A stretch of DNA of 64,000 bases from Nannocystis bainbridge (GCF_028368995.1 NZ_JAQNDL010000001.1:3104001-3168000), one strand, 5' to 3'; counted from the stretch's first letter, positions 1 through 63,826 are shown. Notes: generated by a model from the sequence alone, not told the origin. Made by a program: numbers and translations.

Positions 1-1476
1 CACCTCGTACGCGCCGGGTTGCAGCCCCGCCAGCTCGAAGCGCCCGCTCGCGTCGGAGTCGACGAACGCCGGGCCGCTCGCGCGCGGGGCCGCTTGCCCG
101 GCCTCGGCCTTGACCCGCGCCATCACGCTGACCGCCGCCGCCGGCTCGCCCTTCGCCGTCGTCACCGTGCCGCGGATCGCCCGCCCCGGCGCCACGTCCC
201 ACCGCAGGTCCTCGATCGGCCGCTCGGTAACCGTCACCGGCGCGTACTTCTCGGCCGACACGAACCCCTCGCAACGCACCGTCACCTCGTAGGTGCCCGG
301 CAGCAGGCCCGGGACGCGCACCCGCCCGTCGGCCTCGATCTCCGCCCCGAAGTCGCGCTCGCCCGCGCCCTGCAGCCCCACATGTCCCGAGGGACAGGAT
401 GCTCCGCCGGGCGTCACCACCACCGCGCCCGCGATCGTCGTCGCCGGGTGGGCCTCGATCACGATCGCCTCCGACGTCTCGCCGAGCCCGAGCACCACCT
501 GCTCGGCCGCCATGCCGAACGCGTCGTCGGCCGCCACGCTCGGCTTGTACGCGCCGGGCGAAAGTTGAGCGATGCGGAAGTTGCCGCCGGCATCGGTGAC
601 CGACACACCGCCGCCGCCGCCGAAGAACGTGTCGCCGCGCGTCGCCGTGACCTTCGCGCCCTCGACCGGCGAGCCGTCGCCCGCGCGCACCACCTTGCCG
701 ACCAGCACCGACTCGGGCGTCAAGAACAGCTCGAACCGGTGCCCCGGCGCCGCTCCGCGGTCGCTGCCGGGCGCGTAGCCCTCGGCGCGCGCGTGCACCT
801 GCGGCTGGCCGGGCGCGAGCCACAACGAGAACGCTCCCTCCGCGCCCGACGTGGCGAACGCCATGCCCGTGCCGAGGTACACCCCGCCCGCGCTGACGAT
901 CGCGCCCTCGACCGCGCCGCCGCTCAGGTCCGTGACGACGCCGTGGATCTCCACGCCCCCGCCGCGCAGCGTGATGTCGACGCCGAGCGCCTCGCCGCCG
1001 GGCGCCAGCGCCACCATGTCGAGGTTCGACGGCCGCTCGCCGCGGGTGTGAAACGCCGGCACGTACCCCGGCGCCGACGCGCTCACCGAGTGCCGCACCG
1101 CCCACAGGCCGTCGACGCGGTAGTGCCCGTCGCGCTCGCTGACGGCGCACGGCGGCGTGAAGGTGTCGCGCGCGTCGAGCAGCCCGCCCATGGCGATCGC
1201 ACACACCTGCGCGCCGGCGATCGGCTGGCCCTTGTCGTCGCGCACGGTCCCGGCGATCGCCGCCTTCGCCAGCTTGCGCGGGTCGATGTCCGGCTGCGAC
1301 GCCGCAGCGATCACCGGCGCGATCACGGGCGCCTCGTCCGGCGCCGCCGCTGCCGGCGTCTCTTCAACCTGTCTCTTCAGACATGTCGCCCAGGCCACCC
1401 CGGCGACGCCGAGCCCGAGCGGCAGAAACCACAAGATCCGCGACCGACCCTCGCGCGCGCCGTTCCGACTGGTCAT
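1..1476 (-). CDS. Carboxypeptidase regulatory-like (Cna-B/transthyretin-like repeat) domain membrane-anchored protein; 3' end runs off the window
   Basis: ATG at 1476 with AGGAGG upstream. Manual translation MTSRNGAREGRSRILWFLPLGLGVAGVAW...IAGTVRDDKGQPIAGAQV...SASDGHYRVDGL...SVSASAPGY, with repeated GxVxDxxGxPxxGA motifs. Absent from the ORF track because it has no stop in the window. Confidence 0.8.
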   Translation of the reverse strand, partial: MTSRNGAREGRSRILWFLPLGLGVAGVAWATCLKRQVEETPAAAAPDEAPVIAPVIAAASQPDIDPRKLAKAAIAGTVRDDKGQPIAGAQVCAIAMGGLLDARDTFTPPCAVSERDGHYRVDGLWAVRHSVSASAPGYVPAFHTRGERPSNLDMVALAPGGEALGVDITLRGGGVEIHGVVTDLSGGAVEGAIVSAGGVYLGTGMAFATSGAEGAFSLWLAPGQPQVHARAEGYAPGSDRGAAPGHRFELFLTPESVLVGKVVRAGDGSPVEGAKVTATRGDTFFGGGGGVSVTDAGGNFRIAQLSPGAYKPSVAADDAFGMAAEQVVLGLGETSEAIVIEAHPATTIAGAVVVTPGGASCPSGHVGLQGAGERDFGAEIEADGRVRVPGLLPGTYEVTVRCEGFVSAEKYAPVTVTERPIEDLRWDVAPGRAIRGTVTTAKGEPAAAVSVMARVKAEAGQAAPRASGPAFVDSDASGRFELAGLQPGAYEV

Positions 1477-1724
1477 GCGCCTCCTGTCTAGGCCGCCGGG
1501 CCGGCGATCGTCAAGGCGCCACCACCCCGCGACCGGTCACGGCTCGAGCTCGCCGCGTCACCGGCGGCCGCCGCGGTCCAAAACATGTCCCCGAGGACAT
1601 GTCACTGCGTCAGCCGGGATCTCGACCACGCCCCGGCCGGACCGCGAGGGGTCGCCCGTGCGCGCGGACGGCCGCCGCGATCGCGGCGCGACGCGTGGTC
1701 GAGATCCCGCACCGACGCCGCATT

Positions 1725-1865
1725 TCATCGTACCTCGCGGGTGGTGGCGGCCGCGACATCGGGGGCGACCAGGGCGGACAGGGCGGCGATCGAGCCGCCG
1801 ACGACGAGGACCCCGAGCAAATAGAGGGCACCGGGGCCGCGAGGACGATAGCGAGGACGCGTCAT
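1725..1865 (-). CDS. Possible 46-aa single-TM small protein
   Basis: Manual translation MTRPRYRPRGPGALYLLGVLVVGGSIAALSALVAPDVAAATTREVR*; lies in an otherwise empty intergenic gap. Confidence 0.35.
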   Translation of the reverse strand: MTRPRYRPRGPGALYLLGVLVVGGSIAALSALVAPDVAAATTREVR

Positions 1866-2864: not shown

Positions 2865-3784
<920 letters not shown>

Positions 3785-7112: not shown

Positions 7113-7211
7113 GACGATCCCTCCCCGGGCCCGGCCCGGAACAAATTTTCACCCGCAACAACATGTCCTTCGGGCCATATCGACCCGAACCCACCGCTCA
7201 CCCGCCGGCGA

Positions 7212-7924: not shown

Positions 7925-8004
7925 GACGATTTGCGGCGTAGCCCGGTCTACGTCCCCGCTCCCGAGGTGGCCCGCGGCCGATCTCGCAGGGCTCGGCGGA
8001 GCCA

Positions 8005-8060
8005 TGTCCGAACGGACATGGCCTCTTGGACATTACCAAAAAGACATGTCCTCACGGACA
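8005..8060. repeat. Array of four phased 14-bp palindromes (TGTCC-N4-GGACA family)
   Basis: TGTCCGAACGGACA|TGGCCTCTTGGACA|TTACCAAAAAGACA|TGTCCTCACGGACA. Confidence 0.9.
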
Positions 8061-8086
8061 TGCACGTGCGCAGCCCGCGTCGCCCC

Positions 8087-9124
8087 TCAGGCGGGCCCGA
8101 CGGTCACGCGGCGGGTGTCGCCGGGCGCGTCGATCACCTCGAACTTCACCGGCAGGAAGCGGCTGACGATGCCCATGTTGGTGATCGTGTGCTGCGTCAG
8201 CGCGTGCGAGCGGAAGCTGCCGCCGCCGGCGAGGGCCAGCGGGATGAGCAGTTGGTCGGCGAGGTGCGGGCCGACGGGCGCGTCGGAGCCGAGGTGTTCG
8301 CCGAGCTCCTTGACCACGCGCGCGGCCACCTGCTCGGCGGAGATCCGCTTCTCGCCGAACGCCGAGAACAGCTCGCTGCCGTGCTCGAACTCGACCGACA
8401 GCAGCAGCGCGTTGCCGGGCCCTGCGCTCTCGACCTCGATCGTGCGCATCTCGGAGCGCTCCCAGCCCAGCAGGTTCTGCACTGCCCGCAGCTCGCGGTC
8501 GGCGATCGACTTCGGCAGGTTGGCGTAGATGGCCCGCGCCTGGCGGCGGATGACCTGGCCGCGCTCGTGCCACTGCAGCGGCTGCAGCGGCTCGCCGCCG
8601 GTGATGGTGGCGGTGAAGCGCCCGCCGCCGGCCGGATAGAAGCCGACGCGCTCGAGGTTGGCCTGCACCTGCGCGCCCATGCGGCGCAGCAGCGGCAGGA
8701 ACACCTCGGCGATGAACTCGAACGGCGGCGCCATCGGGTTGTGCGTCCCGCCCTCGAAGCTCAGCGTCGACGTGCCCGGCGCGTGCAGCAGCGGCCAGAT
8801 CACCGTCTGCAGCACCAGCGTCACGCTGCCGGCGCTGCCGACCGAGAACGCGTACTCGCCGTGCTTGACCGGACCTGGCTGAAAGACCAGCTCCTGCGAA
8901 CCGAGCGCGTCGCCCTGGACCTTGGCCGCGCCGACGCTGGTGGCGGCGCGCACGGCCGTGAGGTGCTGGCGCAGCAGCCCCGGCTTGTGCCGGCGGGCCC
9001 GCAGCTTGATCAGGTGGAAGGGCCGCCCCGTGATGAGCGACAGGGCCAGCGAGGTGCGGAGGATCTGGCCTCCGCCCTCGCCCTCCGAGCCGTCGATCAC
9101 GATCGCGTCCTTCGGCGCCTGCAT
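8087..9124 (-). CDS. rtcA: RNA 3'-terminal phosphate cyclase
   Basis: IDGSEGEGGGQILRTSLALS, GGTHNPMAPP, GFYPAGGG, HLADQL. Confidence 0.95.
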   Translation of the reverse strand: MQAPKDAIVIDGSEGEGGGQILRTSLALSLITGRPFHLIKLRARRHKPGLLRQHLTAVRAATSVGAAKVQGDALGSQELVFQPGPVKHGEYAFSVGSAGSVTLVLQTVIWPLLHAPGTSTLSFEGGTHNPMAPPFEFIAEVFLPLLRRMGAQVQANLERVGFYPAGGGRFTATITGGEPLQPLQWHERGQVIRRQARAIYANLPKSIADRELRAVQNLLGWERSEMRTIEVESAGPGNALLLSVEFEHGSELFSAFGEKRISAEQVAARVVKELGEHLGSDAPVGPHLADQLLIPLALAGGGSFRSHALTQHTITNMGIVSRFLPVKFEVIDAPGDTRRVTVGPA

Positions 9125-9125
9125 C

Positions 9126-10361
9126 CTATCCCTTCACGCAGACGACCTGGCGCAGCGTGTGGACGACCTCGACCAGGTCGCGCTGCGCCTCCATCACCGC
9201 GTCGATGTCCTTGTATGCCATCGGCGTCTCGTCGATCACGTCCTCGTCCTTGCGGCACTCGACGCCCGCGGTCGCCTTGCGGTGGTCGGCCACCGTGAAC
9301 CGCTTGCGCGCCTCGGTCCGCGACATCGCCCGCCCCGCCCCGTGGCTGCACGAGTCGAAGCTCTCGGCGTTGCCCTTGCCGCGGACGATGTACGAGCGGG
9401 TCCCCATGCTGCCCGGGATGATCCCCAGGTCGCCCGTGCGGGCCCGTACCGCCCCCTTGCGGGTCACGAGCACGTCCTTGCCGTAGTGGTGCTCGCGCGC
9501 GACGTAGTTGTGGTGGCAGTTGACCGCCGTCGCCCCGAAGGTGAACGGCGGGATGCCCTTGCAACCCGCGACCGCCTGGACCGTCGCCTGCATCATCAGC
9601 TCGCGGTTGTGCCGCGCGAAGTCCTGGGCCCACTCGACCGCCTCGACGTAGTCGTCGAAGTATTTGGTCCCCTCGGACAGGTACGCCAGGTTGTGGTCGG
9701 GCAGGCTGACGAACCACCGCTTCATCTCCTCCTTGGCGAGGGCGATGAAGTGCGAGCCGATGCGGTTACCGACCCCGCGCGAGCCCGAGTGCAGCATGAA
9801 CCACACCCGGTCGCGCTCGTCGAGGCAGACCTCGATGAAGTGGTTGCCGGTCCCGAGCGTACCGAGGTGGACCGCCGTGTTGCTCTTCTCGATCGCCTTG
9901 TGCTTGTCGACGATCGTCTCGAAGCGCGACGCGAGCTGCTTCCACACCGTCGCCACCGGCGCCGGCGGCGAATGCCAGGCGCCCTTGTCGCGGCCGTGAT
10001 TGGTGGTGCGGCCGTGCGGCACGGCCCTCTCGATCGCCGAGCGGACCTCGCTCAGGTTGTCGGGCAGGTCCGACGCCTTGAGGCTGGTCTCGACCGCCAT
10101 CATCCCGCAGCCGATGTCGACGCCGACGGCTGCCGGGATCACCGCGCCGACGGTCGGGACCACGCTGCCGACCGTCGCGCCGATGCCGAGGTGCACATCC
10201 GGCATCGCGGCCACCCAGCGGTGGATGAAGGGCATCTGCGCGATCCGCTCGAGCTGCGCGATCGCGGCCTCTTCTACCTGCACCCCACGCGTCCACCGCT
10301 TGATCGGGACTCCGCCCGTGGGCTGATGGACCTCGTAGTTTTGCGCGTCACGGTTGGACAT
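9126..10361 (-). CDS. rtcB: RNA-splicing/repair ligase RtcB
   Basis: MPDVHLGIGATVG, VGVDIGCGM, GTLGTGNHFIE, HSGSRG, HHNY, RKGA, IPGSMG, SHGAGR, DETPMAYK. Confidence 0.97.
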   Translation of the reverse strand: MSNRDAQNYEVHQPTGGVPIKRWTRGVQVEEAAIAQLERIAQMPFIHRWVAAMPDVHLGIGATVGSVVPTVGAVIPAAVGVDIGCGMMAVETSLKASDLPDNLSEVRSAIERAVPHGRTTNHGRDKGAWHSPPAPVATVWKQLASRFETIVDKHKAIEKSNTAVHLGTLGTGNHFIEVCLDERDRVWFMLHSGSRGVGNRIGSHFIALAKEEMKRWFVSLPDHNLAYLSEGTKYFDDYVEAVEWAQDFARHNRELMMQATVQAVAGCKGIPPFTFGATAVNCHHNYVAREHHYGKDVLVTRKGAVRARTGDLGIIPGSMGTRSYIVRGKGNAESFDSCSHGAGRAMSRTEARKRFTVADHRKATAGVECRKDEDVIDETPMAYKDIDAVMEAQRDLVEVVHTLRQVVCVKG

Positions 10362-10385
10362 CGGCGTTCTCCTGAAGCCCGGTAT

Positions 10386-10401
10386 CGCAGGGAACGTGCC
10401 T
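10386..10401 (-). promoter_or_regulatory. Sigma54 (-24/-12) promoter of rtcBA
   Basis: Minus strand AGGCACGTTCCCTGCG has GG-N10-GC spacing; divergent from the sigma54 activator rtcR. Confidence 0.75.
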
Positions 10402-10517
10402 GGCGGCCCCGACTCAGGGATTAACGAGTAAGTTTCAAGATCTTACCGAAGGGCACGGAGCCTTGGCCAGCATTCTTTTCTATCCGAACCTATAATCTCT
10501 GATAACTTGATAGCCGC

Positions 10518-12119
<1,602 letters not shown>

Positions 12120-12162: not shown

Positions 12163-12218
12163 TTGTCCTTCGAACATGTCCTCATGCACATGTTTTTAAG
12201 GACATGTTCTTTCGAACA
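12163..12218. repeat. Array of four phased 14-bp palindromes
   Basis: TTGTCCTTCGAACA|TGTCCTCATGCACA|TGTTTTTAAGGACA|TGTTCTTTCGAACA. Confidence 0.85.
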
Positions 12219-12472
12219 TAGACATAGAGTGATGTAGCGCTGCCAGCCGCGCGCAGCAGGTCCGTGTCGCATCTGCGTCCGCCGGCCGTGCACGCGCCCG
12301 CGGTCCTGCACAGGCGAGCGCGAGCCCGCGATCGAGCCGCCGCGCGCCATGCGAACGCGGACCCCTCATCCTCCGCCTCGCGCCCGCGAGCGCCCCGCGC
12401 AAACTCGCCCGCGCCGCCCGCTGTAAGCGCCGGCGCCCGGCCGCGTTTCGGTCGCACCTCCGGACGAACGCC

Positions 12473-13440: not shown

Positions 13441-15297
<1,857 letters not shown>

Positions 15298-15374: not shown

Positions 15375-15565
15375 GTACCTTCAATGCATCACATGTCCAT
15401 TCGGACATACGCAGCATTGAGATCCCACGCGAAGATCCCGCCCGTCACCGGCGACCGCCGGCGTGAACGAATCACGCCGGGCGCCGGCGCTCAGGCGCCG
15501 AAAACCTCGCAGACCGGGTCTGCCACCCGATCAAAGCGTCCTGCAGCTCGCCCGGAGCCGCCGCC

Positions 15566-18597: not shown

Positions 18598-19386
18598 ATG
18601 CCCATCCGCTCGCTCGTCGCCTCCGCCCTGTTCGCCGTGGTCGCCTCGCTCGGCTGCAACTTCATCATGAACCCCGACGGCGACGGGATCTTCCGCTGCG
18701 ACAACGCGGACGACTGCGACGTCCCCCTGGCCGAGCACCTCTCCGACAAGCGCGGGCAGTCGAGCTGCGCCGCGGCCGGCGGCGGCGGCGGCGGCTTCAC
18801 CCAGAGCCAGGACAACAAGGTCTGCAGCATCCTCGACAAAGAGGACGTGAGCTGCAACCCGGCGCCCTACCTCGACGACGACAGCGTCCCGGTCGCCAAG
18901 ACCTACAACGACGCCCTCGACGAGGCCGCCGCGTACTCGTGCGCCCCCGAGCAGTACGGCAGCGCCGGCTGTCCGCCCAACGGCAGCGCCTGCAACGCCG
19001 GCCTGCAGGTCCGCACCTACGAGTCGCTGAGCGGCGACGCCGGCAACCCGGAGCAGACCGAGGTCAAGGTGTGCGCGCCCGAGGGCACCGCCGCCGTGAT
19101 CGGCAACAGCGCCCTGCGCGGCTTCGACGTGCTCGACCAGCACTGCCGCTCGTACTTCTGCGACGAGGACTTCGTGTGCAACCGCGGCAGCGGCACCAGC
19201 AGCGGCTGGCGCTGCGTCCGCTGCGACCCCGACCGCGCCTACGGCAACGGCGGCTGCGGCACCATGTACCTGCAGGGCGCCCCCTCGACGGTCTACACCG
19301 ACCCCAGCAAGTCCTGCGAGAGCGTCGCCGCCGCCGACAAGACCGACTTCGGCCCCGCCGTCCTCGCGCCGCCCCCGGCCCCCTGA
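18598..19386 (+). CDS. Cys-rich lipoprotein
   Basis: MPIRSLVASALFAVVASLGC lipobox; many Cys. Confidence 0.75.
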   Translation: MPIRSLVASALFAVVASLGCNFIMNPDGDGIFRCDNADDCDVPLAEHLSDKRGQSSCAAAGGGGGGFTQSQDNKVCSILDKEDVSCNPAPYLDDDSVPVAKTYNDALDEAAAYSCAPEQYGSAGCPPNGSACNAGLQVRTYESLSGDAGNPEQTEVKVCAPEGTAAVIGNSALRGFDVLDQHCRSYFCDEDFVCNRGSGTSSGWRCVRCDPDRAYGNGGCGTMYLQGAPSTVYTDPSKSCESVAAADKTDFGPAVLAPPPAP

Positions 19387-19403: not shown

Positions 19404-19487
19404 TGTCCCTGCGGACATGCCCCTCCGGGCATGTCCCTGCGAGCATGCCCCCGCGAGCATGTTCCTGCGAACATGTCCCTCCGGACA
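19404..19487. repeat. Array of six phased 14-bp palindromes
   Basis: TGTCCCTGCGGACA|TGCCCCTCCGGGCA|TGTCCCTGCGAGCA|TGCCCCCGCGAGCA|TGTTCCTGCGAACA|TGTCCCTCCGGACA. Confidence 0.92.
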
Positions 19488-19570
19488 TGCCCTTCGCGGC
19501 CCGTCCTGGCGCCCGCTCCGCGCGCCGCGGGCTTCCCGGCACGGACGAGCTCGGCTAGACTCGCCGGTCG

Positions 19571-20791
19571 ATGGCGGGCTCCTCTGGCGCTTCCGGACAT
19601 GTCCCTTCGGCCAGCCCGCCGCTGCTGCTGCTGCGCGGCGCCGAGGTGTTCGCCCCCGCCGCGCTCGGCGTCTGCGACGTCCTGCTCGCCGGCGGCAAGA
19701 TCGCCGCGATCGCCCCCGAGCTGCCGGCCCTCCCGCCCGAGCTCGCGGCCGTGCACGACCTCCGCGGCCACCGGCTGATCCCCGGCCTCATCGACGCCCA
19801 CGTCCACCTCATCGGCGGCGGCGGCGAGGCCGGCCCGAGCACCCGCGTCCCGCCGATCACCCTCAGCCAGCTCACCCGCGCCGGCATCACCTCCGTCGTC
19901 GGCGTCCTCGGCACTGACGGCACCACCCGCACCGTCGCCGACCTCGTCGCCCGCACCCTCGGCCTGCGCGACGAGGGCCTGTCCGCCTGGTGCTACACCG
20001 GCAGCTACGAGCTGCCCGTGCCCACGCTCACCGGCAGCGTGCGCCGCGACCTCGTGTTCGTCGACCCGATCATCGGCGTCGGCGAGCTGGCCCTGTCCGA
20101 CCACCGCTCCTCCCAGCCGACCCTCGACGAGCTGCTGCGGGTCGCCGCCGACGTCCACGTCGGCGGCATGATGGCGGGCAAGGCCGGCATCGTGCACCTG
20201 CACATGGGCGACGGCCTGCGCGGCCTCGACCTCGTGCGTCGGGCCCTCGACGTGAGCGAGCTGCCGCCGCGGGTGTTCCACCCGACCCACGTCAACCGCA
20301 ACCGGCGGCTGTTCATCGAGGCGGGCGAGCTCGTCGCGCGCGGCTGCAGCGTCGACGTCACCGCCTTCCCGCCCGAAGATGACCCCGGGGACAGCCTCTA
20401 CGCCGCCGACGCGATCGACCGCTGGATCGCGCAGGGCCTGCCGGTAAGCCGGCTCACGTGCTCCTCCGACGGGGCCGGCTGCATGCCGGTGTTCGACGGC
20501 CACGGGCACATCTGCGCCATGGACGTCGGCCGTCCGACCACCCTCAGCGACACCCTGACCGAGCTCCTGGCCCGCGGGCGGGACCTCGCCGAGGTCCTCC
20601 CGATCTTCACGGTCAACGTCGCCGACCTCCTGCGCCTCGGGCACAAGGGCCGGCTCGCCGCGGGGGCCGACGCCGACCTCGTCGCCCTCGACGACCACGG
20701 TCACATCGCCGGCGTGATCGCCCGGGGCAGGTGGCTGATCCAGGGCGGTCAAACAGTGGTATGCGGGCCCTTCGAGAGGTCTGCCTCGTGA
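19571..20791 (+). CDS. iadA: Isoaspartyl dipeptidase (beta-aspartyl peptidase)
   Basis: PGLIDAHVHLIGGGGEAG, LGTDG, YTGSY, GELALSDHRSS, PTHVNRN, SSDG; start uncertain. Confidence 0.93.
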   Translation: MAGSSGASGHVPSASPPLLLLRGAEVFAPAALGVCDVLLAGGKIAAIAPELPALPPELAAVHDLRGHRLIPGLIDAHVHLIGGGGEAGPSTRVPPITLSQLTRAGITSVVGVLGTDGTTRTVADLVARTLGLRDEGLSAWCYTGSYELPVPTLTGSVRRDLVFVDPIIGVGELALSDHRSSQPTLDELLRVAADVHVGGMMAGKAGIVHLHMGDGLRGLDLVRRALDVSELPPRVFHPTHVNRNRRLFIEAGELVARGCSVDVTAFPPEDDPGDSLYAADAIDRWIAQGLPVSRLTCSSDGAGCMPVFDGHGHICAMDVGRPTTLSDTLTELLARGRDLAEVLPIFTVNVADLLRLGHKGRLAAGADADLVALDDHGHIAGVIARGRWLIQGGQTVVCGPFERSAS

Positions 20792-21633
20792 GCCCAGCAC
20801 GCATCGAAGAGCACCACAGCCGCGGGTGGATCGTCCCTGTCGGCGGCGCCGAAGAGAAGGAGCAGGACCCGGTCATCCTCCGCCGCTTCGTCGAGATCAG
20901 CGGCGGGGCGGGCGCCCGGATCGCCGTCATTCCGACCGCCTCGCGCCTCGCCGACACCGGCGTCCGCTACGAAAAGATCTTCCGCCAGTTGGGCGCCCAC
21001 AGCGCTCGCGCCTTGCCGTTCGAGACCCGCGCCGACGCCGAGCGCGAGGACTGGCTCGGCATCCTCGAGCAGGCCACCGGCGTCTTCTTCACCGGCGGCA
21101 ACCAGCTGCAGCTCAGCACGATCCTCGGCGGCACCTCCGTCGCCCGCTCGATCCGCAAGCTCAACGCCCGCGGCGTCACGGTCGGCGGCACGTCCGCCGG
21201 CGCCGCGATTCTCTCCGAGCACATGATCGCCTTTGGCCAGGGGGGCGCGACCCCCAAGGCGGGTCTCGCATCGCTGGCGCCGGGCTTCGGCCTGACCAAC
21301 CGCGTCGTCATCGACCAGCACTTCCGCCAGCGCGACCGGCTGGGCAGACTGCTGTCGGTCCTCGCCTTCAACCCCTTCGCCGTCGGCATCGGCCTCGACG
21401 AAGACACCGCCGCCTTCCTCGGCCCTGACGACGTCATGCACGTCGACGGCGCCGGCGCCATCACCCTCGTGGACGTCGCCAACCTCGAGCACTCCTCGAT
21501 GGCCTTCGCGAAACCCGGTCAACCCATCTGTTTGACCGGCATCAAGCTGCATATCCTCACCAAGGGCGCGCGCTACAATTTCGTCACCCGCGAGGCCGTC
21601 CCGCCGCTGCCGCCGCCCGACGACGACGACTGA
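20788..21633 (+). CDS. cphB: Cyanophycinase
   Basis: GGAEEK, IPTAS, FTGGNQ, GTSAGA (catalytic Ser), IDQHFRQRDRLGRL, GIGLDEDT; GTGA overlap with iadA. Confidence 0.93.
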   Translation: MSPARIEEHHSRGWIVPVGGAEEKEQDPVILRRFVEISGGAGARIAVIPTASRLADTGVRYEKIFRQLGAHSARALPFETRADAEREDWLGILEQATGVFFTGGNQLQLSTILGGTSVARSIRKLNARGVTVGGTSAGAAILSEHMIAFGQGGATPKAGLASLAPGFGLTNRVVIDQHFRQRDRLGRLLSVLAFNPFAVGIGLDEDTAAFLGPDDVMHVDGAGAITLVDVANLEHSSMAFAKPGQPICLTGIKLHILTKGARYNFVTREAVPPLPPPDDDD

Positions 21634-21702
21634 TCGATACTCACCTCGCGGCCTGCTGCTCTCCGCCTCTCCGGTCCACGACAACCTGCCCCAAGGGACA
21701 TC

Positions 21703-24564: not shown

Positions 24565-24585
24565 CCTGACCCGAAGGACAGGACC

Positions 24586-27769: not shown

Positions 27770-27825
27770 TGCCTCCCGGGACATGTCCGAGTGGACATGC
27801 CCCGAAAGACATGCCCGAAAGCACC
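27770..27825. repeat. Array of four phased 14-bp palindromes
   Basis: TGCCTCCCGGGACA|TGTCCGAGTGGACA|TGCCCCGAAAGACA|TGCCCGAAAGCACC. Confidence 0.88.
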
Positions 27826-32183: not shown

Positions 32184-32244
32184 AGCCCCTTCGGACATGC
32201 CCCGAAGGACATGTCTCTAAGAACATTACCCATGGGACATGTCC
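32184..32244. repeat. Array of four or more phased 14-bp palindromes
   Basis: AGCCCCTTCGGACA|TGCCCCGAAGGACA|TGTCTCTAAGAACA|TTACCCATGGGACA|TGTCC. Confidence 0.88.
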
Positions 32245-38596: not shown

Positions 38597-38685
38597 TGTC
38601 CCAAAGGCCATGTCATTCGCGCCGACCCGCGCGGCCGCGATCGCGGGCAGCATGTCCCTTTCGCCATGTCCTGAATGACATGTTA
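38597..38685. repeat. 14-bp palindrome cluster between convergent genes
   Basis: TGTCCCAAAGGCCA; TGTCCCTTTCGCCA|TGTCCTGAATGACA|TGTTA. Confidence 0.75.
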
Positions 38686-40261: not shown

Positions 40262-40495
40262 GACATGTCCCTTCGAACATGCCGGCGAGCGCTCGAGCGA
40301 CCGACTACATGTCCCTCAAGACATGTTCATTCGAGCGCTCCGGCGAGCGCCCGAACGACGCCGGCGACACGTCCTTCAAGACATGTCATTCGAAAATGCA
40401 TCCAGAATTCCGGCGAGCGCTCGAGCGAGCGGCGACATGTCTCTCAACCCATGTCCGTTCGCAGCAAACCTTTGGCATGTTTCTACGAGCGCCGG
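40262..40495. repeat. Mosaic repeat: 14-bp palindromes alternating with CCGGCGAGCGC(T/C)CGA(G/A)CGA
   Basis: Three copies of CCGGCGAGCGCYCGARCGA interleaved with ACATGTCC...RRACATG units. Confidence 0.8.
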
Positions 40496-43527: not shown

Positions 43528-44718
43528 ATGCGTCTCCGCTCGCGCGTCGCGCTCCTCGCTCTCGCCCTCGCCGCCTGTGATGGTGGCTACAAGCCTCCGC
43601 CGCGCCCACCCACCCCGGCTCCGCCGACCCCGCAGCCGCAGCCTCAGCCGCGCCCCCAGCCGCAGCAGCCGGCCCCTCCACCAGCGGACCCGGCCGTCGC
43701 CATCTCCGCGCACGGCGAGCACAGCTGTATTCGCCGCAAGTCGGGTGCGGTCGCGTGTTGGGGCAAGAACAGCGACGGCCAGCTCGGCGACGGCGGCCGC
43801 GCCGACCTGCCCCGGGCCGCGCCCGTACCTGGTCTTTCGGGCATGTCCGAAGTGTCAGCCGGTGGCAACTTCACCTGCGCGCGCAAGCCCGGCGGCCAGG
43901 TGCTGTGTTGGGGCAACAACGAGGACGGCCAGCTCGGCGACGGCGCCGGCGCGCGGCCGGGCGCGCGCAGCAACACGCCCGTGACCGTCGCGGGGCTCGC
44001 CGACGCGGTCGAGCTCGTCGCCGGTGGCGCGCACGCGTGCGCCCGGCGCAAGGCCGGCGGCGCGGTCTGCTGGGGCCTCGGCGAGAACGGCCAGCTCGGC
44101 ACCCAGGCCGACCGCGCGGCCCGGCCCCTGGCTGTCCCTTCGACCAGCCGCGCCGTCCAGCTCGCGGCCGGCGACGCGCACACCTGCGCCCGCAACGACA
44201 GCGGCACCGTCCTCTGCTGGGGCCGCAACACCGAGGGCCAGCTCGGCGACGGCCTCCACGCCGGCCGCTCGACCCCCAAGCCGGTCCCCGGCCTCAGCGA
44301 CGCCGTCGACCTGGTCGCTGGCGGCAAGCACACCTGCGCCCGCCGCAAGACCGGCGGCGTGGCCTGCTGGGGTCACAACCAGGACGGCCAGCTCGGCGAC
44401 GGCACCAGCGGCACCTTCGCGCAGCGCAGCCCCGTGGTCGTCGCCGGCCTCTCCGCGCCGCTCGAGCTCGCCGCCGGCGGCTCGCACACCTGCGCGAAAG
44501 TCCAGGGTGACAAGGTCCTGTGCTGGGGCGCCGGCCGCAACGGCCAGGTTGACGGCGCCGCCGCCTCGCGCCCGCGCCCGACCCCTGTCCCCGGCCTGAC
44601 CGGCGCCGCCGCGCTCGCCCTCGGCGCCGCCCACTCGTGCGCCCTGCAGTCGTCGGGCAACATCACCTGCTGGGGTAGCGACGAGCACCGCGCCCTCGGC
44701 CCGCGCCGCCTGCCCTGA
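43528..44718 (+). CDS. RCC1-repeat lipoprotein
   Basis: LAAC lipobox; about 7 repeats of AGxxHTCA...VxCWGxNxxGQLGDG. Confidence 0.9.
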   Translation: MRLRSRVALLALALAACDGGYKPPPRPPTPAPPTPQPQPQPRPQPQQPAPPPADPAVAISAHGEHSCIRRKSGAVACWGKNSDGQLGDGGRADLPRAAPVPGLSGMSEVSAGGNFTCARKPGGQVLCWGNNEDGQLGDGAGARPGARSNTPVTVAGLADAVELVAGGAHACARRKAGGAVCWGLGENGQLGTQADRAARPLAVPSTSRAVQLAAGDAHTCARNDSGTVLCWGRNTEGQLGDGLHAGRSTPKPVPGLSDAVDLVAGGKHTCARRKTGGVACWGHNQDGQLGDGTSGTFAQRSPVVVAGLSAPLELAAGGSHTCAKVQGDKVLCWGAGRNGQVDGAAASRPRPTPVPGLTGAAALALGAAHSCALQSSGNITCWGSDEHRALGPRRLP

Positions 44719-44912
44719 TCGACATGCCCTCCAGGACATGCTCTTGACGACATGTCCTGCAGAGCAGGATCGTATCGACATGCCCTGGAGGACATCGGCG
44801 GCCCGCCAGGCCGGATCGGGACAGGCCGGCGAGCCCTCGAAGGTCACCCGCTCGACGCTCCAGCGTCCGCGTCGACATGTCCCGAAGGCCATATGATATG
44901 TCCCGGCGGACA
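44711..44912. repeat. Array of six phased 14-bp palindromes plus two further copies
   Basis: TGCCCTGATCGACA|TGCCCTCCAGGACA|TGCTCTTGACGACA|TGTCCTGCAGAGCA|GGATCGTATCGACA|TGCCCTGGAGGACA; TGTCCCGAAGGCCA; TGTCCCGGCGGACA. Confidence 0.88.
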
Positions 44913-50993: not shown

Positions 50994-51066
50994 TGGAGGC
51001 GAGGGGGATCGAACCCCTGACCTTCGCGCTGCCAGCGCGACGCTCTCCCAGCTGAGCTACGCCCCC
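50994..51066 (-). tRNA. tRNA-Ala (GGC)
   Basis: GGGGGCGTAGCTCAGCTGGGAGAGCGTCGCGCTGGCAGCGCGAAGGTCAGGGGTTCGATCCCCCTCGCCTCCA; G3:U70; anticodon GGC; CCA not encoded. Confidence 0.97.
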
Positions 51067-52025: not shown

Positions 52026-52438
52026 ACTTCCGCGGCAAGGCCGGTCGCAAGCGCCCCGGCAGCGGCGGCAACCTGGTCGACCTGACGCCGCTCATCGACG
52101 TCACCTTCCAGCTGCTCATCTTCTTCCTGCTGACCGCGACCTTCAACACCGACAGCGCCTTCAAGGTCAAGCTGCCCAAGGCCTCGAGCAACGAGCCCGC
52201 CAGCGAGGCCAAGGCCATGGTGGTCGAGATCAGCGAGGACGGCCGGTTCGAGGTCGACCGCGTCGTCGTCGACGACCGCGAGCTGCAGATGCGCCTGTGC
52301 AACGCCGCCAAGGACAACAAGGTGTCGACGGTCAACATCAAGGCCGACCAGAACACCCGCCACGAGAAGGTCGTGCAGGCGATGGACGTGGCCAAGCTGT
52401 GCGGCATCGAGAAGCTCGGCATCCTCCACCGCCACTGA
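52022..52438 (+). CDS. ExbD/TolR family protein
   Basis: DLTPLIDVTFQLLIFFLL; IKAD; VVQAMD. Confidence 0.92.
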   Translation: MNFRGKAGRKRPGSGGNLVDLTPLIDVTFQLLIFFLLTATFNTDSAFKVKLPKASSNEPASEAKAMVVEISEDGRFEVDRVVVDDRELQMRLCNAAKDNKVSTVNIKADQNTRHEKVVQAMDVAKLCGIEKLGILHRH

Positions 52439-52590
52439 GCCTTCGGGACATGTCCTCCGGGACATACTAACCCGACAGGCATGGCCCGGGATGTTTGACC
52501 CGACAGACATGTCCCTCGGGACAGCCTGAGCCTAACAGACATGTCCCTCGGGATAGCCTGAGCCCGACGGACCTGTCCTCGCGGCCATCT
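52437..52590. repeat. 14-bp palindromes embedded in about 32-bp tandem units
   Basis: TGTCCCTCGGGA(C/T)AGCCTGAGCC(T/C)(A/G)AC(A/G)GAC(A/C) twice, plus degenerate flanking copies. Confidence 0.82.
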
Positions 52591-55917: not shown

Positions 55918-56826
55918 TCACCGCAGCGTGATGCGCACCGGGCAGTGGTCGGACACCGTGGGCAGCTTCGCCGGCTCCGCCGTCTGGACCGCGCACCCCA
56001 GCGCCGCGCACATGCCCAGGACCTCGGGTGTCCCGAAGGACAGGTCCTTCCCGCCGAGGAAATGATCGAGCAGGCTCGCCTCCCAGCGCCGCACCTTCGA
56101 CTTCGGCCGCCAGTACTCCGTGCAGCCGAGCACTCCGGTCGGCAGCTGCAGCCCCTCGCGCTCGACCATGCCGTCGATGAAGCGCCGCTCCTCGTCCTCC
56201 GCCTCGAGGTAGCCCGTCGTGTTGAAGTCGCCCGCGACCACGACCTCGCCGCCGAACTCCTCGCGCAGCCGCGGCAGGATCGACGACAGCCACTGCCACT
56301 GCTGCTTGCGCCGGGCCCACCGCTCCGGCTTGCCGCCCGAATCGAAGTGCACCGACACCAGCGCCAGCGTCCGCCCCCTGGCCGTGCGCAGCGAGGTCAG
56401 CGACGCCGGCGCCTGTCCCAGAGGACATTTTTCGCCCTCGCTGAGCGGCCGGTGCTCCTTCAGCTCGAGCCGCGCCGCGTCGTACACCACCCCGACGTGC
56501 AGCCGCCCCTTGCTGTTGCCGCGGCACGACGCCGTCAACGCCGCCCCGTAGCGCCGCCCCGTCAGCGCGTTCGCCCGGTCCAGCACCGCAAACAGCCGCG
56601 CGGGCTCGCGGATCTCCTGCACCGCGAACGCGTCCGCGTTCAGCTCGGCGATCGCCGCCGCGACCTCCTCCGGATCGGTCTTCTTGTCCGGGAACGTCCG
56701 GATATTAAAAGTCCCGAGCACCAGCGGCGCCTCGCGGCGGTACCACAACAGCAGCAGCGCGATCGCCACCAGCAGCGCCCACGGCCACACCCGGCGACGA
56801 CGGCGACGACGACGGCGCTCCTGCAT
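55918..56826 (-). CDS. Endonuclease/exonuclease/phosphatase family protein
   Basis: GTFNI, AVQEI, VSVH, AGDFN, LDH, SDHCPV; N-terminal TM. Confidence 0.88.
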   Translation of the reverse strand: MQERRRRRRRRRVWPWALLVAIALLLLWYRREAPLVLGTFNIRTFPDKKTDPEEVAAAIAELNADAFAVQEIREPARLFAVLDRANALTGRRYGAALTASCRGNSKGRLHVGVVYDAARLELKEHRPLSEGEKCPLGQAPASLTSLRTARGRTLALVSVHFDSGGKPERWARRKQQWQWLSSILPRLREEFGGEVVVAGDFNTTGYLEAEDEERRFIDGMVEREGLQLPTGVLGCTEYWRPKSKVRRWEASLLDHFLGGKDLSFGTPEVLGMCAALGCAVQTAEPAKLPTVSDHCPVRITLR

Positions 56827-59207: not shown

Positions 59208-60158
59208 TCAGGCGGGGATCACGCAGACCCCGACATCCTCATAGTTGGGCGGTGCCATGCCCATCTCGAAGAACGGCGTGCACTCCTCGCCCGTCTGGCA
59301 CGGCCCGTTGCCGCCGCTGACCGGGCAGAACGGAGTGCAGCAGCCGGTCGACATCGGCGGGCAATTGGCGACCGCGGCCGTGGCCGCGCAGAAGCCGCCC
59401 TTCTGACATTGATTGATGTACTGGCACTCGTCGCCCGGCCCGCCCTCGCCGGCCATCGCCGACTCCTTGAAGCACACGAACAGGTCGCCGGCCGAGTTGT
59501 AACAGCCCTGTCCTTCGGGACAGTCCTGCACGAGCGGGTCGCACGAGCCGAGGCAGATCGGCAGCGAGCCGTCGTTGTAGACCACGCAGTTGGCCGTCGG
59601 CGTGTCGGGGCAATTGTCGTTGGCGTCGCAGAACTCGACGCACACCCCGCCCTTGCCCTCCTCGTCGGTCAGCAGGCAGATGTTGCCGAGCGCGCAATTG
59701 TCGACGCCGGTGTACTTGCCGTCCACGACGTCGCACGGGTCGCCGACCACGCCCTCGCCGCCGATCTCGACGCAGGTGTTGACGCCCCACGGCTCGCCCT
59801 CGGCCGGCGCGACCGCCGTGCACTTCTGTCCTTCGGGACAGTCCTGCGCCCGCGGGTCGCACTGGCCGCTGATCCCGCCGTCGGGCGGGACGATGAAGCC
59901 CGCGCTGGTGCCGGTCCCGGCCTCGGAGGTGCTGGTCGGATTCGTCGGCCCACCGCTGGCGCTGGTGCCGCTGTCGGTCCCGTCCGTGGTCGAGGTCGCT
60001 CCGGGCTCCGTCGTCTCCGGATCCTCGCCGTCGTCCTGGTCGTCGGGATTGCTGGTCGGGCCAGACGCGCTCGTCGCGGTCATCATCCCGGACTTGTCGC
60101 CACACGCGCCCAAAGCGACCACGGCGGCGGATACGAACCAGAGTTGAAGCGATCTCAT
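59208..60158 (-). CDS. Cys-rich repeat lipoprotein
   Basis: LGAC lipobox, Thr/Ser linker, repeated CDPxxQDCPEGQxC. Confidence 0.8.
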   Translation of the reverse strand: MRSLQLWFVSAAVVALGACGDKSGMMTATSASGPTSNPDDQDDGEDPETTEPGATSTTDGTDSGTSASGGPTNPTSTSEAGTGTSAGFIVPPDGGISGQCDPRAQDCPEGQKCTAVAPAEGEPWGVNTCVEIGGEGVVGDPCDVVDGKYTGVDNCALGNICLLTDEEGKGGVCVEFCDANDNCPDTPTANCVVYNDGSLPICLGSCDPLVQDCPEGQGCYNSAGDLFVCFKESAMAGEGGPGDECQYINQCQKGGFCAATAAVANCPPMSTGCCTPFCPVSGGNGPCQTGEECTPFFEMGMAPPNYEDVGVCVIPA

Positions 60159-60735: not shown

Positions 60736-60853
60736 GTCGGCAGGGTCGCGGGGGCCGGGCCGGCGGGCAAATTTCAGGCTCCAGCGGCCCTGTCGGGCGG
60801 CCCTGCGGGCGCCCCTTCGCAGTTCCGCATAGCTTGACCTGAGCAAATTGTTT

Positions 60854-60870
60854 GTATACACCCGTTCAGT
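60854..60870 (+). promoter_or_regulatory. Myxobacterial-type LexA box
   Basis: GTATACACCCGTTCAGT matches 15/17 positions of the recalled M. xanthus consensus CTRHAMRYBYGTTCAGS; 43 nt upstream of lexA. Confidence 0.7.
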
Positions 60871-60913
60871 GTCGAAGGCGTGATCTCCGCAGTCGCCGCA
60901 GGAGGCTCTCCCC

Positions 60914-61552
60914 GTGAAACCCCAGCTCACCCACCGCCAGCAGCAAGCGCTCGACTTCATCTCCTCCTGCCTGGAGGCGAACGGGTACCCGCCCACGCTG
61001 CGCGAAATCGGCGAGCACATGGGGATTCGCTCGACCAACGGGGTCAACGACCACCTCAAGGCGCTCGAGCGCAAGGGGTACCTGCTCCGCGAGGAGCTCA
61101 AGAGCCGCGCGCTGCGCCCGGTGGATGCGCCGGAGAGCGCCGCGCGGGCCCGCGCCACCGAGATCCCGATCCTCGGGCGCGTCGCCGCCGGTCAGCCGAT
61201 CCTGGCTGACGAGAACGTCACCAACCGGATCAGCGTCGACCAGTTCTTCCTCCACGGCAATCAGCCGCGCGAGGTGTTCGGCCTCGTCGTCCACGGCGAG
61301 AGCATGATCGAGGACGGAATCTTCGACGGCGATTACGTGTTCGTCCGTCGCCAGGCCAACGCCGAGCGGGGCGAGATCGTCGTGGCGATGATCGAGGGCG
61401 AGGTGACGTGCAAGCGTTACTACCTCGAAGGCGACCGGATCCGTCTGCAGCCCGGCAACGCGGCGATGCAACCGATCTTCGTCCACCGCGGCGATCATCG
61501 CGCCTTCGAGTTGGTTGGCAAGGTCATCGGCGTCTACCGCAGCCTCCACTAG
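60914..61552 (+). CDS. lexA: SOS repressor LexA
   Basis: [22 protein letters not shown] cleavage site, GESM (Ser), TCKR (Lys). Confidence 0.96.
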
Positions 61553-61642
61553 CGCGCCGGCAGTTTCGCCGCTGCCGCCGCCGTGAGGCCAAGCAGCCGC
61601 GGCGGCGAGCCCTTACGAAATATTTCCGCTACAGTGTTGCCC

Positions 61643-63826
61643 GTGTCGCGGCCGCCCACACCTGGCGCTCTCGCGCCTGGGGACCGCAGTCGGCGTCGTC
61701 GGGGCGTCGGACCTCTCGCGCTCCTCGGCTGCTTCCTGTTCTCTGCGGGCCTCAACGTGGCCGCGGTGAGCACGAGCCTGCTGGTGCTGATCCGCGCCGA
61801 CGACCGCGTCGCCTCGCACCCGGTCGCGCGCAAGCCCGCGTGCGTCAACGGCTACGAGCGCGGCGTCGACCTGCTGGAGAAGGCGCTGTCGGGCGACGAG
61901 GGCCGACTCTACGACGGCCTCCTGCACACCATCGTCGACGGCAAGTGCGAGACCGAGGTGATCGTCGCATTGGTCGACGACAAGGACCCGGTCGATCCGC
62001 TGGCCGAGCTCGACGACCCCGACCTGCCGGAGCCGCGCAAGAAAGAGCGCGAGAAGAAAAAGAAGGAAGAGGAGAAGCCGCCCGAGCCGCTGCCGGTCGA
62101 GGAGCCGAAGCCCGAGGAGAAGAAGAAGGAAGAGGAGCAGCCGAAGCCCGAGGAGGAGCAGCCGAAGGAGAAGATCGACTTCGAGCTGCTGCAGCTCAAG
62201 ATGGTCGAGCAGCTCGAGGAGAAGGACGAGAAGGAGTCCCCCGACGACGCCCACTACCTCTCCAACGTCAACCGCGACGTCACCGAAGAGACCCGGGCCG
62301 AGATGACCAACCTGCAGCGGGACGCCGAGCAGGCCAAGGCCTCGCAGCAGGAGCCGAGCGAAGAGCCCACCAAGGGCATGGCCAACGAAGAGAAGATCGC
62401 CGAGACGCGCGAGCAGAAGAGCCAGCTCGCGCAGGAGGCCCCCAAGGTCCAGCAGAGCCCGGAGACCAAGATCCCGGAGCAGAACGACCCGCGGGCCAAG
62501 AGCAACCTGGCGATGCGCGACCTGGCCCCGCGCGAGCACTCGCCCGAGATGCTCAAGCACGAGGCCGTCGCCGACGCCGCCAACTCCGGCGAGCTCGCGC
62601 CCGACAAGAAGTCCGCCGCCGCGGTCATGCAGCGCAACAAGCAGCAGGCCGGCTCGTCGGACACCAAATCACCTGTCCTTCGGTTCAGGTTGTCGGCCAA
62701 CGAGATGAACGCGCTGTTCGGGCGCGACATCGCCGAGAAGAAGGACCTCGTGTCCCAGCGCCAGTCGAAGAAGAAGGGCATCTGGGAGGAGGCGCGCGAG
62801 CTGTATCAGTCGCCGCTCGAGAACATGGTCCCCGAGGTCCGGCCCGGCAACCAGACCGCGCTGCGCTCGCGCAAGCACCCGTTCGCCCAGTTCATCGCCA
62901 CGATGCACCGGACGATCCACGACAAGTGGGCGTTCGGCTTCCTCGAGCAGCTCGACACGATGGGCCGCGGCAACGCGCTCAACAAGCCCGACCTGTGGAC
63001 CCGCGTCGAGATCGTGCTCAACAGCGACGGCTCGCTCGACAAGCTGCGGACGGTCCGTTACTCCGGCAACATGCAGTTCGACGGGGCCGCGCGCGAGGTC
63101 GTGCGCAACGCCGGGCCCTACCCGCAGCCGCCGCGCGAGATCTTGAGCGGCAACGGCAAGGTCTACATCCACTGGGCGTTCCACCGCGACGAGCGGGCCT
63201 GCGGCACCTTCGGCGCCGAGCCGTTCATCCTCGACAACTCCGGTCAGGGCGAGCGACCCGATCCGAACCGGGCTGTCCGTCCGGCCAGCTCCGAGTCGGA
63301 GGCGAATGCGTCGCGGCGGCTCGCGCGTCAAGCGGGCCCGGCCGCGCCCGGGCCGTCCGGTCCCGAGGGCCCGTCGGCCCCCGGCGGCCACAACCATGAG
63401 CACGGCGAGGGCGACGGTCACAACCACGGCACCCCGCCCGAGCAGGGCAGCAGCGGCGACCAGCCCGACGCCGAGGCCAAGCACGCCGCCAACGCCTGGC
63501 TCAAGGTGTTCGCCGCCCGCGACGCCGCCAAGCTGGCCGCGCGCGCCAGCCTGCCGTTCGTCATCGGCGACCAGGTGGTCGCTCGCACCCGCGAGGAGCT
63601 GCAAGGTGTCCTTCAGGCCATGCTCGACGAGGCCGGCAGCGGCGCGCCGGGAGCGGCCGAGGTCTTCACCGCCTCCGGCCTGCGCAAGCGCTTCGGCAGC
63701 GTCCCCGCCGGCGTGCAGGAGGGCCTCGGCCGCAACTACGCGGTCAGCAAGGTCCGCGGCGAACCCTTCATCCTGATCCTCGAGCGCCGCTTCGGCGACT
63801 GGCGCGTCGTCGGCGTCGCCCGCTGA
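61643..63826 (+). CDS. TonB C-terminal-domain protein with N-terminal TM and E/K/P-rich linker (start uncertain)
   Basis: TM segment; KEEEKP linker; VEIVLNSDGSL...SGNMQFDGAAREVVRNAGPYPQPP. Confidence 0.78.
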   Translation: MSRPPTPGALAPGDRSRRRRGVGPLALLGCFLFSAGLNVAAVSTSLLVLIRADDRVASHPVARKPACVNGYERGVDLLEKALSGDEGRLYDGLLHTIVDGKCETEVIVALVDDKDPVDPLAELDDPDLPEPRKKEREKKKKEEEKPPEPLPVEEPKPEEKKKEEEQPKPEEEQPKEKIDFELLQLKMVEQLEEKDEKESPDDAHYLSNVNRDVTEETRAEMTNLQRDAEQAKASQQEPSEEPTKGMANEEKIAETREQKSQLAQEAPKVQQSPETKIPEQNDPRAKSNLAMRDLAPREHSPEMLKHEAVADAANSGELAPDKKSAAAVMQRNKQQAGSSDTKSPVLRFRLSANEMNALFGRDIAEKKDLVSQRQSKKKGIWEEARELYQSPLENMVPEVRPGNQTALRSRKHPFAQFIATMHRTIHDKWAFGFLEQLDTMGRGNALNKPDLWTRVEIVLNSDGSLDKLRTVRYSGNMQFDGAAREVVRNAGPYPQPPREILSGNGKVYIHWAFHRDERACGTFGAEPFILDNSGQGERPDPNRAVRPASSESEANASRRLARQAGPAAPGPSGPEGPSAPGGHNHEHGEGDGHNHGTPPEQGSSGDQPDAEAKHAANAWLKVFAARDAAKLAARASLPFVIGDQVVARTREELQGVLQAMLDEAGSGAPGAAEVFTASGLRKRFGSVPAGVQEGLGRNYAVSKVRGEPFILILERRFGDWRVVGVAR

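Follow-up and report, generated by a model that had tools for sequence, protein, structure and literature searches.

Repetitive extragenic palindromes (REPs) are described in PMC3733652 as imperfect palindromes of 20-40 bp, which carry a GTAG or CGTC tetranucleotide at one end and have proposed roles in termination and mRNA stability. They have also been presented as 3'UTR regulators (bioRxiv 10.64898/2026.03.23.713779). According to a 2026 survey, most bacterial inverted repeats have 4-bp spacers and are gathered past stop codons; arms of at least 10 bp were used there, and therefore an element with 5-bp arms would be missed at that threshold (PMC13155455). Such a short element was analysed in a 64,000-nt stretch of the genome of the soil myxobacterium Nannocystis bainbridge (NZ_JAQNDL010000001.1:3104001-3168000), which is termed the window and is numbered from its first letter. 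The element is the 14-bp palindrome TGTCC-N4-GGACA, which occurs as single units and in phased tandem arrays. With confidence evenly balanced, it might be explained as a family of mini-palindromes resembling the REPs and the bacterial interspersed mosaic elements (BIMEs), but without the REP-associated tyrosine transposase (RAYT), whose members would form hairpins at transcript ends and have a putative sequence-specific reader.

The element behaves like REP/BIME sequences in being lineage-specific, in its kept arms and free loop, in its location at transcript ends, and in its clustering and unstable number; however, it differs in size and lacks both the GTAG head and the RAYT. The similarity includes the REP, BIME and REPIN (REP doublet forming a hairpin) elements of Enterobacteria and Pseudomonas, which are also high-copy palindromes with conserved arms and a short variable loop. 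These elements and the Nannocystis units are mostly extragenic, at 3' ends and in convergent gaps; both are clustered, vary in number between relatives and are capable of forming hairpins in DNA or RNA. Whereas a REP has 20-40 nt, the core of the Nannocystis unit is 14 nt, or up to 20 nt with its flanks. The unit is fully symmetric and therefore, unlike a REP, has no orientation. The BIME clusters alternate in orientation and contain linkers; whereas the Nannocystis units abut head to tail, repeating every 14 bp exactly with zero linker. Unlike the REP, the unit has no GTAG or CGTC head, and its position frequencies give RCA before TGTCC and TGY after GGACA. The RAYT transposase is thought to move and maintain REPs. 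No match to this partner was obtained in the 11 Nannocystis genomes searched, and 37% of the exact unit copies are in coding sequence. The first-pass annotation, made from the window alone, had compared the palindrome both to REP/BIME elements and to chromosome-organising sites. The former comparison is the better fit in behaviour, except for the missing RAYT and GTAG head.

Other short palindromes are more distant. The Rickettsia palindromic elements (RPEs) are single elements of about 100-150 bp. Their in-frame insertion in protein genes, which yields an extra translated loop, is similar to a case in the window (25524-25630, in a cphA-like gene); unlike an RPE, however, this insert is an array of 14-bp units (arrays reach up to 8 units), and most unit copies are intergenic. 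The highly iterated palindrome HIP1 of cyanobacteria is an 8-bp uninterrupted palindrome with no arrays and no 3'-end bias. HIP1 and the Nannocystis unit are both lineage-specific short palindromes, enriched in coding and noncoding DNA and evenly spread; whereas the unit has a free 4-bp spacer, phased arrays and a strong 3'-end bias. The parS sites of ParB, the Noc-binding sites (NBS), the ram sites of RacA and matS are palindromes of 14-16 bp read by dimeric proteins, with tens of copies per genome in regional distribution. The unit may resemble a parS site shortened by one base per arm. Unlike these sites, it has about 10,000 copies, which are evenly spread and tied to gene ends, and no extra ParB-like gene accompanies it. 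Full-text literature searches on the motif itself, on palindromes or repeats in Nannocystis and on REPs in Myxococcus returned nothing on this element, in agreement with the earlier impression that it had no prior description. The main text of a 2025 REP survey (PMC12306157) does not mention Nannocystis, Myxococcus, tandem or RAYT.

Geometry and taxonomic range of the unit

The window (G+C 70-75%) contains 19 exact copies of TGTCC-N4-GGACA, whereas 0.01 are expected (mean of 100 dinucleotide-preserving shuffles), and 55 units with at most one arm mismatch. The first-pass annotation had called the palindrome pervasive and listed 29 loci; a unit or near-unit is present at all 29. It had also, correctly, placed the host among the myxobacteria. 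Tandem Repeats Finder reported period 14 at 19404-19493, 8003-8062, 12171-12219, 29477-29557 and 44720-44758. In the host genome (G000, an 11.05-Mb assembly in five contigs), TGTCC is the top arm among all perfect palindromes of the 5-N4-5 type, with 1,987 copies. The units with 0, 1 and 2 arm mismatches number 1,987, 4,258 and 7,530, against 3, 161 and 3,152 for the reversed control pattern; subtraction of the control therefore leaves about 10,000 units above background at up to two arm mismatches.

The spacing of these units is strict. Start-to-start distances peak only at 14 (485), 28 (305), 42 (232), 56 (128) and 70 bp (64), so that the 14-bp phasing seen by eye in the window holds genome-wide. 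The loci comprise 4,102 single units, 1,100 doubles, 289 triples and 146 arrays of 4-8 units. Arrays of six to seven units had been claimed for the window, and the one at 19404-19493 indeed has six full units and a partial seventh. The spacer length is rigid throughout the genome (N4, 1,987; N3, 16; N5, 5). The junction GGACA-N0-TGTCC occurs 956 times, against 11 times for N1 and at most 19 for any of N1-N12.

The basic element is the palindromic unit and not the CATG junction between units. Of the 1,987 exact units, 888 have no CATG on either side, whereas only 33 of the 956 junction palindromes lack a unit (up to two mismatches) on both sides. The half-site ACATGTCC occurs outside palindromic units in 276 of its 3,947 copies. 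The most over-represented 8-mer of the genome is GACATGTC, at about 30 times the mononucleotide expectation. By the same expectation, other whole-genome words also deviate: CTAG is at 0.05, TCGA at 4.2x and GATC at 3.0x.

Conservation within the unit is greatest at G2 and C13, which hardly vary, and next at T1/A14 and C4/G11; the most variable positions are 3/12 and 5/10. The central 4 bp are diverse yet biased: a pyrimidine (C or T) occupies position 6 in 78% of units and a purine (G or A) occupies position 9 in 76%, without pairing between them. The earlier description of conserved TG...CA ends and conserved spacing was thus correct, whereas the centre is not fully free as had been stated. 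A flank bias is found in the three bases on each side (RCA before, TGY after); beyond these, complementarity is at chance level. The extended consensus of the unit is (A/C)TGTCC-N4-GGACA(T/G).

Neighbouring units in arrays share the same loop in only 3.3% of cases (1.3% for random pairs) and are identical as whole units in 1.1%; most arrays are therefore not recent copies. Some arrays are recent copies, for example the eight near-identical units at C3:1085844. A variant eight-unit array on the same contig (G000:C3:1054308-1054420) has the junction CAGG in place of CATG (GGACAGGTCC).

The expansion of the motif is clade-restricted, comprising Nannocystis and, in low numbers, two sister genera. 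Among 31 related genomes, all 11 of the genus contain exact units, with 114-2,090 copies each (1-6 for the reversed control). Outside the genus, two other genera of the family have 87 and 161 copies, and the rest have at most 7. A family survey of 61 genomes in 17 genera used the 16-base pattern TGTCC-N4-GGACATG with both strands summed. All seven Nannocystis genomes (g1) contain 112-1,468 matches, the sister genera g2 and g4 contain 36-55 (5 of 5 genomes) and 26-253 (7 of 7), and the other 14 genera contain at most 3 per genome. A scan for double units with one genome per species, covering 185,579 species, revealed 18 stretches, all in Nannocystis records. No different dominant palindrome stood out in 200 kb and 41 kb of two sister-genus genomes (G011 and G013).

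Gene 3' ends and turnover between species

Most characteristically, the units occur at gene 3' ends, and the gaps between convergent genes are richest in them. Genes were called with our own crude codon-usage gene finder (7,965 genes, 82% coding). Of the exact units, 1,238 are intergenic, 15 lie across gene ends and 734 are in coding sequence; the intergenic share is 63% in about 18% of the genome, and the coding share is 37%. Exact units reach a density of 1.51 per kb in the gaps between convergent genes; the value falls to 0.62 for tandem gaps, 0.22 for divergent gaps and 0.08 for coding sequence. When units with up to one mismatch are counted, 742 of 1,303 convergent gaps (57%) contain at least one, including 406 of the 609 with a length of 100-299 bp, as do 1,010 of 3,786 tandem gaps. 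The corresponding figures for divergent gaps are 45 of 638 at 100-299 bp and 0 of 170 at 20-99 bp. A unit starts within 100 nt past the stop codon in 2,082 of the 7,965 genes. The unit starts fall in 14-bp registers tied to the stop codon, with peaks at -3, +2, +11 and +16; the stop codon is therefore often part of a degenerate unit. Unit density is even along all five contigs and has no relation to GC-skew switches, and thus no regional pattern with respect to origin or terminus, as might be expected of chromosome-organising sites, was found on the contigs.

An alignment of 183 kb around the window was used to compare G000 with three members of the genus (G005, G010 and G001). The G000 genome served as the outgroup: units were picked in it, and the identity values refer only to comparisons within the ingroup of three. 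The species share the arms and the length of the spacer (4 bp) but differ in loops, copy number and gap length, all of which change rapidly. For intergenic units with up to one mismatch (n=24), identity is 0.932 in the arms, 0.790 in the local flanks and 0.764 in the loops; the difference between arms and flanks is 0.139 (bootstrap interval 0.096-0.186). The corresponding values for arms, flanks and loops in coding sequence are 0.967, 0.898 and 0.911 for exact units (n=14), and 0.961, 0.927 and 0.911 for units with up to one mismatch (n=42). The proposal that selection, rather than slippage of identical copies, maintains the pattern gains support from these arm identities and from the rarely shared loops.

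The orthologous arrays occupy the same gaps and keep their CATG junctions, with different unit numbers and loops. Anchors in all four genomes were available for 107 gaps. In 39 of these gaps G000 has a unit; units are also present in each of the three other species for 23 of them, in two species for 5, in one for 5 and in no other species for 6. Where G000 lacks a unit (68 gaps), the gap is likewise empty in the three other species in 63 cases. The median range of gap length over the four genomes is 194.5 bp with units and 6 bp without, and 89 of 116 intergenic units (up to one mismatch) could not be aligned gap-free. The gaps at window-relative positions 44718, 52438 and 105420 show species differences of 1-2 kb, and the extra DNA contains unit-flanked open reading frames; genes seem to be gained and lost between units in such variable gaps.

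One unit outside the window has a different context. At L121 3008-3021 (G000:C1:3267008-3267021), a single unit CTGTCCATTTGGACAG is located in a divergent promoter gap and adjoins the gene of a 976-aa BRCT-domain protein. The gap is 216-219 bp, and both its length and the unit are kept in all four species. This may be an operator-like use of the word. The two flanking genes encode the BRCT-domain protein and a protein without a family match, and no DNA-binding regulator was found there.

Copies inside genes and loci of the window

The 734 exact units in coding sequence exceed the 22.8 +/- 3.7 obtained with a synonymous-codon shuffle (32-fold) and the 4.8 +/- 1.7 obtained with a codon-order shuffle; the enrichment over a codon-preserving background, a check proposed at the outset, is thus clear. 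The reading frames of these units follow codon usage (416, 255 and 63 over the three frames). Nine in-gene units of the window are free of insertions and deletions in the three other species, and two of the nine show a compensated change of TGTCC/GGACA to TGCCC/GGGCA. One of these is the second of two units within a ChrR-like gene (27199-27226; second unit at 27213), changed in the other species. The other is an exact unit (56414-56427) in a gene of the endonuclease/exonuclease/phosphatase family, where the compensated arm change is found in another species. The same gene contains an exact unit at 56029-56042 in a variable protein loop. Both units of this protein are in indel-rich loops that vary in the sister genera, and clean insertion of the units could not be demonstrated from that alignment.

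An in-frame insertion is documented in a cyanophycin-synthetase-like (cphA-like) gene (24586-26466) in six of nine genomes. The translated array (25524-25630, plus strand) is located in the Mur_ligase_M domain, and the Pfam match to this domain ends at residue 310, where the array starts. The insert adds 96-279 bp of units, always a multiple of 3, in G000, G003, G005, G010, G007 and G001. The three more distant genomes G004, G008 and G009 have no insert and only 30 bp between the anchors. The same gene also contains an exact unit (25083-25096) that is conserved in four species. The gene belongs to a cyanophycin cluster (19646-26466), which comprises amidohydrolase-family, Peptidase_S51 (cyanophycinase-like), 953-aa cyanophycin synthetase and shorter Mur-ligase-type cphA-like genes; its short intergenic gaps are filled by repeat units. 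For example, one-mismatch units are located upstream of the amidohydrolase gene (19600-19613, kept in all four species), immediately 5' of the cyanophycin synthetase start codon (21687-21700), and in the 21-bp gap from cphA to the cphA-like gene, which is filled by the unit at 24567-24580.

Further in-gene units are exact copies at 383-396, inside a predicted minus-strand gene (arms kept, loop different in three other species), and at 36941-36954, within an FG-GAP repeat gene (identical in four species). An exact unit at 59509-59522 is part of a repeated motif coding for Cys-Pro-Glu-Gly-Gln, and the unit at 59827-59840 is in the second copy of this motif. A single exact unit at 15394-15407 is present in all four species. 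The region 13548-13984 contains long coding tandem repeats of another kind (CGACGA and GACACCGGC, up to 31 copies) in a predicted gene without Pfam match.

The array at 19404-19493, with its CA/TG junctions, begins 18 nt past the stop codon at 19384-19386. It has predicted stems of 8-10 bp, and its orthologues consist of about two units or of a far longer array. Two four-unit arrays are associated with the rtc genes. The array at 8005-8060 adjoins the stop codon at the 3' end of the RtcA-like minus-strand gene, and its orthologous arrays keep the CATG junctions and differ in loops and length; the array at 12164-12218 is about 45 nt past the stop codon of the RtcR-like gene. In this region (8090-12116), the RtcA and RtcB (RNA cyclase and ligase) genes are divergent from the gene of the RtcR sigma-54 activator, and the divergent gap is 234 bp with identical length in four species.

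Other gaps with units include the divergent gap with two abutting degenerate units at 1370-1397, and the space between two minus-strand genes with a one-mismatch unit at 7164-7177. An exact unit at 1586-1599 is followed by a degenerate one. The convergent gaps contain a four-unit array at 27770-27825, units at 33402-33546 past a fasciclin-domain gene, and two units at 38597-38680, the first of which begins 2 nt past the stop codon. A further convergent gap contains an array with additional units (44711-44912) and has 288 bp here and 171-1,637 bp in other species. Two units at 32184-32211 are 10 nt past the stop codon of the gene for a MerR/B12-binding regulator (31289-32170), a MerR-type protein with B12-binding domains in the architecture of a CarH-like light sensor. 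Units are also found within higher-order repeats: in tandem repeats of 42 bp and 48 bp past a protein kinase gene (29463-29671), in a 58-bp repeat (40266-40400), and together with 32-bp repeats that begin at the stop codon of an ExbD-like gene (52437-52587). Separate tandem repeats of 15, 21 and 48 bp (32940-33358) are located in the C-terminal half of the fasciclin-domain gene and encode a Pro/Ala/Lys-rich tail.

Possible roles and rival explanations

In the REP/BIME-like explanation, units stand singly or head to tail at a 14-bp period, mainly in the first 100 nt past stop codons and above all in convergent gaps. A transcribed unit would fold into a 5-bp stem with a 4-nt loop, and neighbouring arms in arrays would lengthen the stems to 8-10 bp. 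Such structures might act as bidirectional transcript-end hairpins that terminate transcription and/or shield transcripts from 3' exonucleases; hairpin-plus-T terminators are not evident in this genome. Selection keeps the arm sequence as well as both spacings (4 nt and 0 nt), which would imply a sequence-specific reader. The unit number probably shifts quickly by slipped-strand mispairing of the self-complementary sequence, and arrays occasionally land in frame within genes.

Several results are consistent with a role in RNA. A single unit is predicted to form a stem of 5-6 bp with a 4-nt loop. In arrays, neighbouring arms pair into predicted stems of 8-10 bp on either strand (z -4.1 to -6.4 versus shuffles). 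Among units with one or two mismatches within 100 nt past the stop in tandem gaps, sense-strand mismatches are of the G.U type in 616 cases and of the C.A type in 472 (p = 1.4e-5), whereas beyond 150 nt from the stop the counts are 280 and 278. This G.U bias near stop codons suggests selection on the transcript, as a modest but specific sign. The Rfam covariance models reached the gathering score in the window only for a tRNA (50994-51066) and gave no match for the repeat. No metagenome or metatranscriptome contig of relatives spans the 19404-19493 array, and these data have no bearing on transcript ends.

Other observations weigh against transcript-end hairpins. The excess of G.U over C.A is only 1.3-fold, and no preference for stable tetraloops was seen on the sense strand (UUCG 28, CGAA 37). 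Arm covariation is weak: the C-G double at positions 3/12 was counted 146 times where independence predicts about 86, and the A-T and G-C doubles at these positions are not enriched. In their behaviour the arms are thus closer to a read sequence than to a free stem. The position frequencies show no T enrichment (U-tract) after the units. The strict N4 spacer and the symmetric unpaired preference for Y6 and R9 would be explained equally well or better by a dimeric DNA reader. The in-gene enrichment and conservation of exact units would be left unexplained by a 3'-end role. The gene coordinates all rest on the crude gene finder, and the between-species samples are small (n = 8-42 units). Moreover, the units do not have the form of intrinsic (Rho-independent) terminators, which consist of a G+C-rich hairpin and a U-tract. 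A hairpin-plus-T consensus scan of 20 kb of the window found 6 sites, one of which is a unit, versus 3.9 +/- 2.1 in shuffles.

The idea of the first-pass annotation was that the units are double-stranded DNA sites, on which a putative symmetric (dimeric) protein is loaded side by side along arrays. This is a possible but less likely explanation. At gene ends, the protein might be a roadblock or terminator, might manage supercoils or might belong to the nucleoid proteins. The strict N4 spacer (1,987 vs 16 and 5) and N0 junction (956 vs at most 19), the sequence-specific arms with nearly invariant G2/C13, the symmetric unpaired pyrimidine/purine preference at positions 6/9 and the weak arm covariation would all suit such a reader. 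So would the rarity of identical neighbours (1.1% of whole units, 3.3% of loops), the DNA-level enrichment and conservation within coding sequence, and the half-site ACATGTCC, which is seldom alone (276 of 3,947 outside units). However, about 10,000 sites of fast-changing copy number are unusual for a site-specific factor, there is no regional (origin/terminus) pattern, and a site acting purely as double-stranded DNA would not be expected to show the sense-strand G.U bias near stops. The compensated arm changes at 27213 and 56414 also argue against it. The analogy with chromosome-organising parS, NBS, ram or matS sites is not supported by the even density, the placement at gene 3' ends, the single ParB_N match and the G.U bias. 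No candidate protein was found: G000 has one ParB_N match and no extra ParB-like reader, like the sister genera without the motif, and the lexA promoter has a different box. The LexA protein had been considered as a reader, because CTGTCC-N4-GGACAG fits CTGT-N8-ACAG; no such site is present upstream of lexA (60914-61549). The sequence there (60820-60880) ends in GTTCAG and is not the repeat unit; this GTTCAG-type box presumably resembles the LexA box of Myxococcus xanthus.

A selfish or neutral hairpin repeat without host function is an unlikely explanation, although parts of the evidence agree with it. Such a repeat would spread by copying and slippage and would survive where it is least harmful, after gene ends and in variable protein loops. 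The clade-restricted expansion, with 112-1,468 matches in each Nannocystis genome against 26-253 in the two sister genera and no more than 3 in the 14 others, is compatible with this, and the mismatch classes of 1,987, 4,258 and 7,530 resemble a decaying family. The cphA-like in-frame array in six of nine genomes with its later length drift (96-279 bp, multiples of 3), the in-gene units in variable loops and less conserved stretches (flank identity 0.898 vs 0.938 expected) and the recent near-identical copies at C3:1085844 point in the same direction. However, the arms of outgroup-chosen units are clearly more conserved than the neighbouring DNA, gap occupancy is conserved over four species, and the spacer length is held despite fast-changing loops. 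There is also no transposase partner and there are few multi-copy genes. The RAYT/IS200 transposase PF01797 (E <= 0.001) is absent from all 11 genus genomes, with matches in 8 of the 31 genomes searched; the first-pass annotation had likewise seen no transposase or binding-protein candidate in the window. As possible partner enzymes, 97 genes bracketed by units were inspected, and the sole recurrent family was a glutathione S-transferase from a segmental duplication. The 23S-rRNA-IVP family PF05635 is absent from G000, and GIY-YIG PF01541 is present only inside two large open frames. High-copy insertion sequences were not found either: repeat regions of 500 bp or more number only 74, and none has more than 6 partners.

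A signal for DNA uptake or self-recognition, of the type of the DNA uptake sequences (DUS) or uptake signal sequences (USS), is highly improbable. The word is genus-specific, evenly spread and over-represented in coding and non-coding DNA (GACATGTC as the top 8-mer, about 30x), and terminator-like positions are frequent. However, the unit is strictly palindromic around four free central bp, and it is not an asymmetric stand-alone word, since ACATGTCC occurs outside units in only 276 of 3,947 copies. Uptake signals, to our knowledge, do not occur as tandem 14-bp arrays. A more far-reaching form of the transcript-end explanation, to which we assign only a small probability, would be a dedicated end-of-gene code in Nannocystis and the two sister genera. 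A clade-specific factor would read the 14-bp word as DNA or as an RNA hairpin and would end or process transcripts bidirectionally, replacing hairpin-plus-U terminators; the word would also be selected within genes.

If the explanation as REP/BIME-like transcript-end hairpins is true, the element would be the smallest REP-like family known to us, and one that thrives without a RAYT. The units are present in over half of the convergent junctions of an 11-Mb genome, and therefore they probably shape transcript ends chromosome-wide. Their selected arms and spacing, combined with free loops, would offer a clean handle for finding the reading factor. The arrays also matter when Nannocystis genomes, a source of natural products, are mined and annotated: they create hypervariable intergenic regions, supply stop codons and add in-frame peptide loops to enzymes.

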